A DNA stretch of 13,896 nucleotides from Microcystaceae cyanobacterium (GTDB taxonomy: Bacteria; Cyanobacteriota; Cyanobacteriia; Cyanobacteriales; Microcystaceae), in contig JBGTGT010000088.1 in NCBI GenBank assembly GCA_041746575.1, forward strand, positions 1-13,896. The letters run 5' to 3'. Below, piece by piece: positions 3,249 through 13,896 of the stretch. Position 1 is the first letter of the stretch. Each line of letters begins with the position of its first letter. The translations under genes and the position numbers were made by a program. The notes beneath the pieces are model-generated. The model was not told where the DNA came from, did no database searches, and was given only the letters and a program-made list of their open reading frames with translations.

Positions 3249-5216
3249 ATGATACCAAGACGCTTGCAAGCCCGCCAAATTCGTAAAGACGCTGCCGAAT
3301 TTGCTAGTTTACGGGAACATCCCTCCCATATTAATAATGGTGAAGAATTCAAGTATCGTCGTACCGTTCAAAAAGACGGGAAAGATGTAAATGAATCGAG
3401 TCATATTGCTAACTTTACTAAAGGTTTACCCCATGACACGACGACGGGATCATTAGTCAATCCTGCCGATTATCAAACATTTATTTTAGGAATTCAGTCC
3501 GGAAGCACTGACGATTTTGCGCGGACTCCTCTTGGCTCTCCTAAATTCAATAATCCCAATAATCAAGGATCCATTTGGGAATCTAACATTGCTCAAACCG
3601 CTAAGAATGGCGGAGATGCAGACGTTCGTGCTTGGGAAAGTGCCGGTGCGGGACTCGTCTTTGAATTGGAAGGATTTGATGCCCAAGCCTTAACCATACC
3701 TCCTGCGCCGACATTAGATAGTCCAGAATTAGCGGCAGAAATCAGTGAAGTCTATTTACAAGCGTTACTGCGGGACGTTCATTTTTCCCAATTGCGCGAT
3801 TCCAGTCCAGACAATCCTCCCACTTTCTGTGCTGATCGTAACGTCAGTATTTCAGAAGCGATAAATATGCTTAATACCGTTAAAATTGGTGGAAAGAACT
3901 GGTTTAACTCAGACGAAACTGATTATCTCGATTTATTTGACAATACGAGCTTAACGACCCTTTTAGGCGATCGCTTTTTCCGTAGTATGGATTTAACAGA
4001 GGCGGAAACCCGACGTAAGCGTTCCCGTCGAACCTTAAGTAATCTTTTCCGAGGGGTTGCCCCCGGTGATCAAGTCGGACCCTATCTGTCCCAATTTCTC
4101 CTGATTGGCAATAAAGGAATTAATGGGAACCCGGCTTCCCAAGTTGTAGACTTTGCCGATGGCTTAATTACTTATGGTGCAGTACGGATTGATCAGCGCG
4201 TTCGTACTGCCGAACCCTGTAAGGATTATATGACGGCTTTTGAGGAATGGGTCGATGTGCAGAATGGGGCAGATTTACGGCGTTTAGAAACCTATACGAA
4301 TGGCACAGGCGCAAATGCCCCCTATCGCTTTATTACAACCCCTCGTGATTTAGCGACCTATGTTCACTATGACGCCCTTTATGAAGCCTATTTGAATGCT
4401 TGCTTAATTTTACTGGGTATGGGTGCGCCTTTCGATCCCGGTATTCCTTTCCAGCGTCCCGATGCCGAAGATAAACAACAGGGATTTGCTACTTTTGGAG
4501 GGCCAGTCATTCTAACGCTTGTCTGTGAAGTGGCAACACGAGCCTTAAAAGCCGTTCGTTACCAAAAATTTAATGTGCATCGTCGTCTGCGTCCTGAAGC
4601 GGTTGGTGGCTTAATTGACCGCTTTATGATCAATGTAAGTGAACAGGATGGCCAATTGATCACCCAAAACGAAGAATTAAAACCGCTAACTCCGTTAGTC
4701 AATGCGCTGAAAAATGTGGGTTTGTTAGACAAAGTTAAAACTCATAATAGTCAGCAAAATAGCAACTTTGGTCGAAATACCAGTGACAGTTACTTTTTAC
4801 CCATGGCTTTTGCTGAAGGTTCTCCCATGCACCCAGCTTATGGGGCAGGACACGCTACGGTTGCAGGGGCTTGCGTTACTATGCTTAAAGCATTCTTTGA
4901 TCATGGTTGGCAATTACCCCTTGGTCAAAATAGCGAGGGTAAATACATCGCCTATGAACCGAATGGGGATGGTAGCGGTTTAGTTCAGGTGTTATTAGAT
5001 GAACCCTTAACCGTCGAAGGGGAATTGAACAAAGTGGCAGCGAATATCTCAATTGGACGCAATTGGGCAGGGGTTCACTACTTTACCGATTATATTGAGT
5101 CCTTACGCTTAGGAGAACAGATTGCGATCGGTATTCTTGAAGAACAAAAGCTCACTTTTGGTGAAAACTTTACCATGACCGTTCCCCTCTTTGATGGAGG
5201 CGCAAGACAAATTTAA
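3249..5216 (+). CDS. Vanadium-dependent haloperoxidase (cyanobacterial/red-algal bromoperoxidase type)
   Basis: All three vanadate-binding motifs present: LKAVRYQKFNVHRRLRPE (K440, R448), GSPMHPAYGAGH (H528, G534, H535) and ELNK...GRNWAGVHY (R604, H610). AAGGA 11 nt before the ATG. No N-terminal signal peptide visible. Confidence 0.95.
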   Translation: MIPRRLQARQIRKDAAEFASLREHPSHINNGEEFKYRRTVQKDGKDVNESSHIANFTKGLPHDTTTGSLVNPADYQTFILGIQSGSTDDFARTPLGSPKFNNPNNQGSIWESNIAQTAKNGGDADVRAWESAGAGLVFELEGFDAQALTIPPAPTLDSPELAAEISEVYLQALLRDVHFSQLRDSSPDNPPTFCADRNVSISEAINMLNTVKIGGKNWFNSDETDYLDLFDNTSLTTLLGDRFFRSMDLTEAETRRKRSRRTLSNLFRGVAPGDQVGPYLSQFLLIGNKGINGNPASQVVDFADGLITYGAVRIDQRVRTAEPCKDYMTAFEEWVDVQNGADLRRLETYTNGTGANAPYRFITTPRDLATYVHYDALYEAYLNACLILLGMGAPFDPGIPFQRPDAEDKQQGFATFGGPVILTLVCEVATRALKAVRYQKFNVHRRLRPEAVGGLIDRFMINVSEQDGQLITQNEELKPLTPLVNALKNVGLLDKVKTHNSQQNSNFGRNTSDSYFLPMAFAEGSPMHPAYGAGHATVAGACVTMLKAFFDHGWQLPLGQNSEGKYIAYEPNGDGSGLVQVLLDEPLTVEGELNKVAANISIGRNWAGVHYFTDYIESLRLGEQIAIGILEEQKLTFGENFTMTVPLFDGGARQI

Positions 5217-12543: not shown

Positions 12544-13776
12544 ATGATCAAAATATTACACCTTTCAGATATTCATATGGGCAGTGGTTTTTCCCATGGT
12601 CGTTTAAATCCTGAAACCGGCGTTAATACCCGCTTAGAAGACTTTGTCAATACCCTAAGTCAATGTATTGATCGAGCCATTACTGAACCGGTTGACTTAG
12701 TTTTATTTGGGGGTGATGCCTTTCCAGATGCTACCCCTCCCCCCTATGTTCAAGAAGCATTTGCAAGTCAATTCCGTCGTTTAGCAGATGCTGATATTCC
12801 CACCGTTTTATTAGTTGGAAACCATGACCAACATTCTCAAGGAAATGGGGGAGCAAGTTTATGTATTTATCGTACCCTTGGTGTTCCTCGTTTTATTGTA
12901 GGAGATAGTCTAGCCACCCATCAAATTGACACTCGTCAGGGAAAAATTCAAGTAATTACCTTACCTTGGTTAACCCGTTCAACTCTCTTAACTCGCCCTG
13001 AGACCGAAGGGTTATCTTTAGAAAGCGTTAACGAATTATTAATTGAAAAACTAAGCCATGTCCTTGAACATGAAATTCGTCAGCTTGATCCAAATTTGCC
13101 CACAATTTTATTGGGTCATTTAATGGCTAGTCGCGCTACCTTAGGGGCAGAACGTTTTTTAGCAGTGGGTAAAGGGTTTACCATTCCCTTATCTTTATTA
13201 TGCCGGCCGGAATGGGAATATGTGGCTTTGGGTCATGTCCATAAGCATCAAAATCTTAACCCAAATAACGATCCACCGATTATTTATCCCGGTAGTATTG
13301 AACGGGTAGATTTTAGTGAAGAAAAAGAGCAAAAAGGCTACGTTTTAGTGAGAATAATGAAAGGAAAAGTTGAATGGCAATTTTGTACCCTACCCGCTCG
13401 ACTTTTTTGCACCATTGAGGTAGATGTTTCGCAAATAGACGATCCCCAAGCAGCAATTTTAGAAGTTATTAAAAAACATAAAATTGATGATGCTGTTGTT
13501 CGTTTAATTTATCGAATTCGTTCAGAACAACTCGATTTAATTCAAACGTCAATTATTCATGAAGCGTTACAATCTGCTCATCATTATACAATTCGTCCTG
13601 AATTAATCAGTCAATTAGCGAGGCCAAGAATTCCTGAATTAGGCGTCAATCAAAGTTTAGATCCGATGAACGCCTTAAAAACTTATTTACAGTGTCGGGA
13701 AGGATTAGACGATATTACTGAGGATTTATTACAGGCAGCAGAAAAGTTATTAGCAAGTGAACTGTCCCGACGCTGA
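12544..13776 (+). CDS. sbcD: SbcD (Mre11-like) nuclease subunit; last codons derived from an IS end
   Basis: Metallophosphoesterase motifs HLSDIHMG, GGDAF, VGNHD, GH, ALGHVH, YPGS. The final (S)ELSRR* is read from the IS200/IS605 right end starting at 13757. Confidence 0.93.
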   Translation: MIKILHLSDIHMGSGFSHGRLNPETGVNTRLEDFVNTLSQCIDRAITEPVDLVLFGGDAFPDATPPPYVQEAFASQFRRLADADIPTVLLVGNHDQHSQGNGGASLCIYRTLGVPRFIVGDSLATHQIDTRQGKIQVITLPWLTRSTLLTRPETEGLSLESVNELLIEKLSHVLEHEIRQLDPNLPTILLGHLMASRATLGAERFLAVGKGFTIPLSLLCRPEWEYVALGHVHKHQNLNPNNDPPIIYPGSIERVDFSEEKEQKGYVLVRIMKGKVEWQFCTLPARLFCTIEVDVSQIDDPQAAILEVIKKHKIDDAVVRLIYRIRSEQLDLIQTSIIHEALQSAHHYTIRPELISQLARPRIPELGVNQSLDPMNALKTYLQCREGLDDITEDLLQAAEKLLASELSRR

Positions 13777-13870
13777 CGCAAACGTACAGCGCGGGCTTCT
13801 TACCCAGAGACAAGCGCAGTAGTAGATTTCTTTCGTCCTCTATTACTACGACTTACAGTCTGGCGATAAG
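13737..13870 (-). ncRNA. Predicted TnpB omegaRNA (reRNA): scaffold plus ~20-nt flank-derived guide
   Basis: Long stem at 13804-13863 (CCAGA/UCUGG; CGUAGUAAUAGA/UCUACUACUGCG), then the right-end hairpin and UCAC, then flank UUGCUAAUAACUUUUCUGCU. Boundaries are inferred from known TnpB reRNA architecture. Confidence 0.6.
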
Positions 13871-13873
13871 CTT
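13757..13873 (-). mobile_element. Right end of an IS200/IS605-family (tnpB; IS891/IS1341-like) element
   Basis: Minus strand ...TAA GAAG CCCGCGCTGTACG-TTTG-CGTCAGCGTCGGG ACAGT TCAC|: stop codon, subterminal imperfect hairpin (13766-13795) and terminal TCAC (GTGA at 13757-13760), the standard right-end layout. The left boundary is uncertain and may lie beyond the window. Confidence 0.8.
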
Positions 13874-13895
13874 CTTGATGAAGTTGTTCATGGGG
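13800..13895 (-). CDS. tnpB: 3' end of a tnpB-like reading frame (partial or remnant)
   Basis: Reads PHEQLHQEAYRQTVSRSNRGRKKSTTALVSG*. The last 23 residues resemble the recalled basic tail of cyanobacterial TnpB; the first 8 do not. Confidence 0.5.
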   Translation of the reverse strand, partial: PHEQLHQEAYRQTVSRSNRGRKKSTTALVSG

Positions 13896-13896
13896 G

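Follow-up and report, generated by a model that had tools for sequence, protein, structure and literature searches.

A tnpB-only IS200/IS605 element at the end of sbcD in a Microcystaceae cyanobacterium: a probably harmless tail swap and a generic, predicted TnpB guide

Here, we analyzed a window of 13,896 nucleotides, the entire contig C88 of a 134-contig cyanobacterial assembly, in which the last codons of sbcD are supplied by the right end of a tnpB-only IS200/IS605 element. The explanation that accounts best for all observations, and which we consider very probable, is insertion at the end of sbcD by TnpA acting in trans, a tolerated new protein tail, and the generic self-targeting of TnpB. 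Under this model, a non-autonomous IS1341-like element would have been pasted by TnpA in trans into a TTTAG located three codons ahead of the sbcD stop, on the non-coding strand. The element would then produce an omegaRNA, the last ~16 bases of which, originating from sbcD, may direct TnpB to the IS-free allele; by analogy with known systems, this guide may have helped the new allele to become fixed among the chromosome copies and, if the element were excised, would bring this allele back. Such self-targeting would be generic to every copy of the element and would need no link to DNA repair. The insertion allele now looks fixed, and the guide therefore appears to be without a standing target.

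The sbcD gene spans positions 12544-13776 (+) as one open frame of 410 amino acids, the native part of which extends to 13756, the first base of codon 405. The protein matches profile TIGR00619 with 251.8 bits (cut-off 78), is 78-79% identical to its orthologues from two genomes of the same genus (G001 and G002) and, as an AlphaFold model with a mean pLDDT of 75 and C-terminal helices at residues 374-384 and 389-409, matches known Mre11/SbcD structures in a structure comparison. Judging from the sequence and the model, it comprises the metallophosphoesterase core, the capping domain and the C-terminal helix-loop-helix that is predicted to bind SbcC; the C-terminal helix-loop-helix of Mre11/SbcD has been described, in excerpts of PMC3258140, to bind the Rad50 coiled coil. 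In an alignment of relatives, L402 and L403 are the last nearly invariant residues, and the tail is swapped after them, at the end of this predicted SbcC-binding helix-loop-helix.

Downstream of the swap point, the coding sequence belongs to the element: positions 13757-13776 (+) provide the last two bases of codon 405 followed by ELSRR and TGA, with the stop codon (13774-13776) located inside one arm of the hairpin at 13766-13795. Codons 405-410 encode SELSRR, a six-residue tail in place of three residues. This ending is absent from the SbcD of all 24 relatives compared, and the element copy in contig C89 ends an SSB-like prophage gene with the identical tail, in agreement with the previous proposal, made in a sequence-only reading of this DNA, that SELSRR and its stop come from the IS end. 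The same reading had suggested that the left end and the displaced part of sbcD be sought beyond the contig; both were recovered in contigs C91 and C90, where the native tail consists of Thr, Lys, Lys and a TAA stop. Because the left flanks in C90 and C91 start alike, the three-codon tail is the same whichever of the two contigs joins C88; synteny did not decide between them, as the neighbors of sbcD and of the hemH-like gene of C91 differ in G001 and G002. The SbcD encoded by the empty site is 407 aa long, exactly as are the orthologues in G001 and G002. Among the relatives, SbcD varies between 405 and 440 aa (18 measured), with 2-37 residues following the last LL or LM (the 17 of the 18 that fitted this pattern). 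In the reverse orientation, the right end has a stop in each of the three frames, after 1, 6 or 21 codons, and a short new tail thus comes automatically. Given that the swap sits at the variable end of the last helix, SbcD is presumed, from sequence and model, to still work, and the idea that loss of a short SbcD tail was tolerated holds by inference, the swap falling after L402/L403 and the displaced tail being only three codons long. Thus, tolerance of the insertion is well supported, if inferentially, and the tail swap is real but ordinary, and probably harmless. The hemH-like gene itself (C91:35070-36260) encodes a ferrochelatase-like protein whose tail is rich in histidine; the gene is closely followed by a short palindromic repeat and would be convergent with sbcD if C91 continues C88.

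The boundary of the element was placed by comparison of its copies. Positions 13757-13896 (140 bases) are 100% identical to C55:17431-17570 and are also identical to the end of C89, with which one extra base is shared; because the identity of the three copies stops at 13757, the boundary lies exactly there, confirming that the terminal TCAC (13757-13760, -), the right-end cleavage tetramer formed by the last element bases, is embedded in the sbcD frame. The three genome copies are identical over their overlaps, and the full one (C55:17431-18957; L026:1932-3458) is 1,527 bp long, with tnpB as the only long ORF and no tnpA; it interrupts a Ser/Thr kinase gene which also has an upstream frameshift. 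As anticipated for a tnpB-associated right end, the region 13757-13870 has clear relatives: all 29 related tnpB loci end in AGTTCAC, and the two closest right ends are 94-97% identical over 118-119 nt. Going inward on the minus strand, the TCAC is followed by the subterminal hairpin (13766-13795), recognized by fold and covariation as both the TnpA-binding palindrome and the last omegaRNA stem, by GAAG at the hairpin foot (13796-13799), which, judging from IS608, may serve TCAC as its right DNA guide, and by the TAA stop (13800-13802) and last 31 codons of tnpB (13800-13896), a 100% match to the C terminus encoded by the C55 copy. Both ends carry subterminal hairpins and lack terminal inverted repeats, a related left hairpin being present in C55, C90 and C91.

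The target motif is (T)TTAG. TTAG precedes all three left ends in this genome (C55, C90 and C91), and TTAC, which had been entertained conditionally as the target motif by analogy with IS891, was rejected on this ground. Among the 29 related loci, 21 left ends were recognized by pattern, 19 following TTAG and 2 following TTAA, and in genome G111 TTTAG precedes all seven copies. When the C55 copy is cut out after TTAG, the kinase frame is open across the site; together with the restored 407-aa SbcD, this places the insertion 3′ of a fixed motif, without target duplication. The assembly contains ~45,000 TTAG sites, so that no special reason has to be sought for a hit in a particular gene, and the three copies, at the kinase gene, in a prophage remnant and at sbcD, have no common theme. 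Related elements are widespread, with matches at E ≤ 1e-50 in 83 of the 301 genomes, its own genome counted. Ends of other multi-copy IS605-like elements were seen at C79, C119, C121 and C122, at C86 and C105, and at C3, C64 and C94; their left ends follow TTAA and TTTAG, their right ends terminate in TCAC, and their bodies, which are unassembled, could contain a tnpA or a compatible TnpB. Elsewhere in the related set, two near-identical tnpB elements face each other ~4 kb apart (G150:C1:6326269-6332410; L054, L116), a possible composite or inversion substrate.

The sequence-only reading invoked a compatible TnpB, and the element itself carries one in which, judged from the residues, the D-E-D triad is intact. 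The features of this protein were read from the C55 copy, because no more than the last 31 codons of tnpB fall within the window. TnpB matches NF040570 with 361 bits (cut-off 100), NF038281 with 391.5 bits, which is below the cut-off of 425 for that profile, and the Pfam families PF01385, PF07282 and PF12323; the RuvC triad is D179/E280/D362, and the zinc finger is present with two CxxC. It belongs to the same family as the ISDra2 TnpB (PMC8612924; PDB 8BF8, 8EXA, 8H1J), matching the 8BF8 structure with E 4e-63.

The predicted omegaRNA scaffold was delineated by alignment and covariation, with its 3′ 140 nt at 13757-13896 (-), overlapping the end of tnpB, and with the 5′ hairpin and the pseudoknot partner located ~50 nt past the contig end, where they were read in the C55 copy. 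In the alignment of 27 right ends, the fold comprises a hairpin on the 5′ side, a long stem with interruptions and a terminal hairpin; two-sided changes occur in 22 of its 41 pairs, 97.6% of the cells are paired, and none of 500 shuffles reaches this pairing (slid controls, 36-45% paired), although these controls flatter the fold, because it was derived from the same alignment, and relatedness alone can beat shuffles. The terminal hairpin (13766-13795) shows two-sided changes in eight of nine pairs in the 27 sequences, and a 4-bp pseudoknot to the element end, nearly invariant, is compatible with the alignment. Rfam yielded no match in the right-end region. The predicted guide, the first 16-20 nt outside the right end (13737-13756, -), is antisense to sbcD codons ~399-405 and complementary to codons A-E-K-L-L-A, precisely as the sequence-only reading had it. 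Given the intact triad and the covarying right-end fold, the guide prediction is sound. The proposed cis-antisense RNA is a different matter: the overlap exists by construction, but any opposite-strand insertion into a gene gives one, so that it is nothing special to sbcD, and it covers only 16-20 nt of the native mRNA, at the very end of the gene.

A role for the guide in trans was also considered. Even the best TTAG sites of the assembly differ from the 16-nt guide at three or more positions, and a 10-nt seed match on C118 was dismissed as a trans target, being within chance (~0.1 expected by our estimate). According to excerpts of PMC10705468 and PMC13622181, TldRs, the nuclease-dead TnpB repressors, combine a mutated RuvC triad with a guide that targets a trans site; with the triad intact and no trans TTAG target below three mismatches in 16 nt, this identity was rejected.

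This organism is presumably polyploid, as its relatives are, and the earlier reading had inferred homing into a repair gene. Empty-site self-targeting, the general part of this inference, is a published role of TnpB: excerpts of Karvelis et al. 2021 (PMC8612924) describe ~16 nt of flank as the guide and propose empty-site cutting and homing for ISDra2, those of Meers et al. 2023 (10.1101/2023.03.14.532601) report that TnpB cuts donor joints and raises the retention of tnpB elements, and those of Mears et al. 2025 (10.1101/2025.02.20.638934) report a TnpB drive in multicopy plasmids, with the comment that high ploidy is all a drive requires. The particular part, a special status of sbcD, is not supported, as an unrelated gene received the same tail, and that the element landed in a DNA-repair gene is most likely coincidental. 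A drive on the chromosomes of cyanobacteria would be a fair extension of the plasmid result by analogy, and not special to the sbcD locus. At the level of titles and abstract openings, we found no study of TnpB drive on polyploid cyanobacterial chromosomes; likewise, no paper combining a TTAG TAM, an IS605 TnpB and cyanobacteria was found in a search of main records.

The state of the allele was followed in the Logan contigs of four runs, hot-spring metagenomes from one study, three of which may be the source of the assembly. The IS-free sbcD end was found in the contigs, which drop rare variants, of none of the four runs, and a 23-nt pattern retrieved no IS-free allele or close strain from metagenome contigs. 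The contigs of these runs contain only the same three right flanks, and the depth of the element is ~3 times that of sbcD, depth being not equal to copy number. No Y1 TnpA was matched by PF01797 or NF033573 in an assembly that drops repeat bodies and misses core genes.

Three other accounts of the sbcD end have to be weighed. One holds that the junction arose during assembly, by attachment of a collapsed repeat to the end of sbcD; some reason for it is that the junction lies where a contig ends, in a metagenome assembly whose contigs overlap by 141 nt. However, independent Logan unitigs from all four runs continue past the native part of sbcD into the first 29 nt of the element, uninterrupted and with no mismatch, and the displaced tail adjoins a left end and yields the length of the orthologues, so that this account is largely refuted already and we give it hardly any credence. 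Another assumes a polyploid cell in which the sbcD copy is homing actively and the repair-gene target matters, through homing feedback or antisense control by the omegaRNA. The guide, TAM, scaffold and triad are all present, the omegaRNA end overlaps the sbcD mRNA as a matter of construction, and high ploidy alone would suffice for drive, as excerpts of Mears et al. (10.1101/2025.02.20.638934) state. Yet the contigs of the four runs lack an IS-free allele, a tnpA for new insertions was not found in this repeat-dropping assembly, none of the 24 relatives has the tail, the three copies sit at unrelated loci, the overlap with native sbcD mRNA is so short, and the TTAG sites available are so numerous, that we regard this account as very unlikely.

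The third account, in which the nuclease arm is dead or weak and the allele was fixed by drift alone, is compatible with the insertion part of our preferred explanation and concerns two in-frame 51-nt hairpin mini-repeats within tnpB, translated as two 17-aa inserts. One of these breaks the alignment to ISDra2-type TnpBs between the first two RuvC motifs; the other falls in the scaffold region and is also in the tnpB frame, its 3′ part appearing at 13870-13896 (-) as a gap block in the right-end alignment, with the contig ending inside the repeat. TnpB with its two inserts may be inactive, and excerpts of a published assay (10.1101/2023.03.14.532601) report a natural IS608 TnpB to be inactive. 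On the other hand, both inserts keep the frame and leave the triad intact, the insert of the scaffold occupies an unpaired linker, which separates the 5′ hairpin from the first long stem, and is common to elements of four other genomes (L039, L041, L042 and L048), and the RuvC-region insert recurs in L039. A dead or weak nuclease is a possibility to be taken seriously but one that we consider unlikely. Insertion by TnpA in trans, followed by toleration and generic self-targeting, remains our preferred explanation.

The left flanks pose a separate problem. Those of C91 (36270-36287) and C90 (33208-33225) share 18 identical bases, 14 of them beyond TTAG, and agree at 21 of 23 positions; the flank of C55 differs. 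The chance of such sharing is 1e-8 per pair from composition and 9e-7 among the TTAG sites of this genome, and none of 29 copy pairs from five other genomes, inspected by eye and not independent of each other, showed it (31 pairs, 2 excluded without a left end in view). C90 and C91 overlap by exactly 141 nt, as do most linked contig ends, and the sharing is therefore in the assembly graph. The sbcD-side flank looks native, giving the right protein length and matching G001 at 11 of 13 bases around the stop. The C90 flank sits in a truncated ribbon-helix-helix gene, with TTAG in register with the Leu-Gly of the paralogue in C66, a Lys and an Ala also matching; a 15-nt match between this flank and C66 was discarded, being at the chance level of other 15-mers. 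Pairing between the left end and the target was rejected as the cause as well, the longest complement of 4 nt being the mode of the shuffles.

We favor, with some reservation, recombination or template switching between the two identical copies, in which the tract went beyond the left end by 14 bases and sbcD more likely served as the donor. Capture of the flank by a cryptic TnpA cut seems improbable, and so, to the same degree, does an assembly artefact; that both flanks are native is less probable still. More specifically, break repair between IS copies, possibly triggered by TnpB and involving one-sided microhomology, could have pasted the element together with the donor's left flank elsewhere, the same nuclease having fixed the sbcD allele, but we rate this combined scenario as quite unlikely; if true, it would amount to ectopic homing without a transposase, with the flank as a donor tag, and would add a new way for tnpB-only elements to spread. 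Flank sharing of this kind did not come up in literature listings, a negative result of little weight.

The surroundings of the second copy deserve a description of their own. The prophage remnant (C90:31445-33225 and C89:11533-12947) encodes an IS110-type recombinase, Rep_trans and truncated RHH and SSB-like genes, and has an apparently intact paralogue (C66:85-8400) with small coat-like genes. In our reading, the remnant derives from an inovirus-like prophage with RHH and SSB-like genes. If C90 joins C89, rep and ssb are inverted relative to C66, that is, the remnant is rearranged. Outside this genome, no homologues of the RHH, SSB-like and Rep proteins were found, the C66 paralogue being the only relative.

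The gaps of the assembly caution against reading biology into absences. Neither sbcC, present in 83 of the 88 family genomes, nor smc, present in 85 of the 88, was found in it, 15 of 261 sampled ORFs of genome G415 had no match, including those which we take to encode a class II aldolase and riboflavin synthase, and further core genes were matched only by weak paralogues. With sbcC, smc and several essential genes missing, binning gaps are indicated, and the completeness figure of 99.78% therefore overstates the assembly; an orphan SbcD, with sbcC truly lost, was not accepted, as the assembly likewise lacks smc and several core genes. Elsewhere in the window, a 655-aa ORF (3249-5216, +) has no Pfam match at E 0.001; its C-terminal motifs resemble those of a vanadium-dependent haloperoxidase.

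Several known systems come close to this element. As in ISDra2, where excerpts of PMC8612924 describe an RNA (reRNA) that derives from the 3′ end of tnpB plus the right end and uses ~16 nt of the flank as its guide, the same arrangement is predicted here; unlike ISDra2, the element targets (T)TTAG rather than TTGAT, ends in TCAC, has no tnpA and carries the two 51-nt in-frame inserts. The ISGst elements are likewise tnpB-only and moved by TnpA in trans, according to excerpts of 10.1101/2023.03.14.532601, but they come from another host phylum, and their activity has been demonstrated, whereas here it is only predicted. In the IS605 plasmid drive, as excerpted from 10.1101/2025.02.20.638934, a new insertion similarly retargets the guide to IS-free replicon copies; that drive was shown for plasmids, whereas chromosome copies would be involved here. 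IS608, in excerpts of Morero et al. 2018 (PMC5934647), shares the subterminal hairpins, the tetramer cleavage sites and the lack of target duplication but targets TTAC and has tnpA, in contrast to the present element with its (T)TTAG and no tnpA. Its right tetramer and hairpin-foot guide are TCAA/GAAT versus TCAC/GAAG here, where the pairing is presumed by analogy; the left hairpin foot here is GAAG, whereas the IS608 rule would predict AAAC for TTAG. The widespread cyanobacterial (T)TTAG/GTTCAC tnpB elements have the same end motifs and fold, the nearest relatives being 78-80% identical.

Thus, the element type and the mechanism are already known from published work, and the sbcD insertion is a further tolerated insertion of a widespread element. 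As it stands, the case itself matters little, because the predicted guide would act as TnpB guides are known to. It does, however, supply a natural TAM, (T)TTAG, the end TCAC and a covarying omegaRNA fold for a large cyanobacterial clade of TnpBs, and with these in hand there is enough for testing the nuclease of that clade. If drive among chromosome copies proves true, the plasmid result would extend to chromosomes, and any copy of the element could show it.
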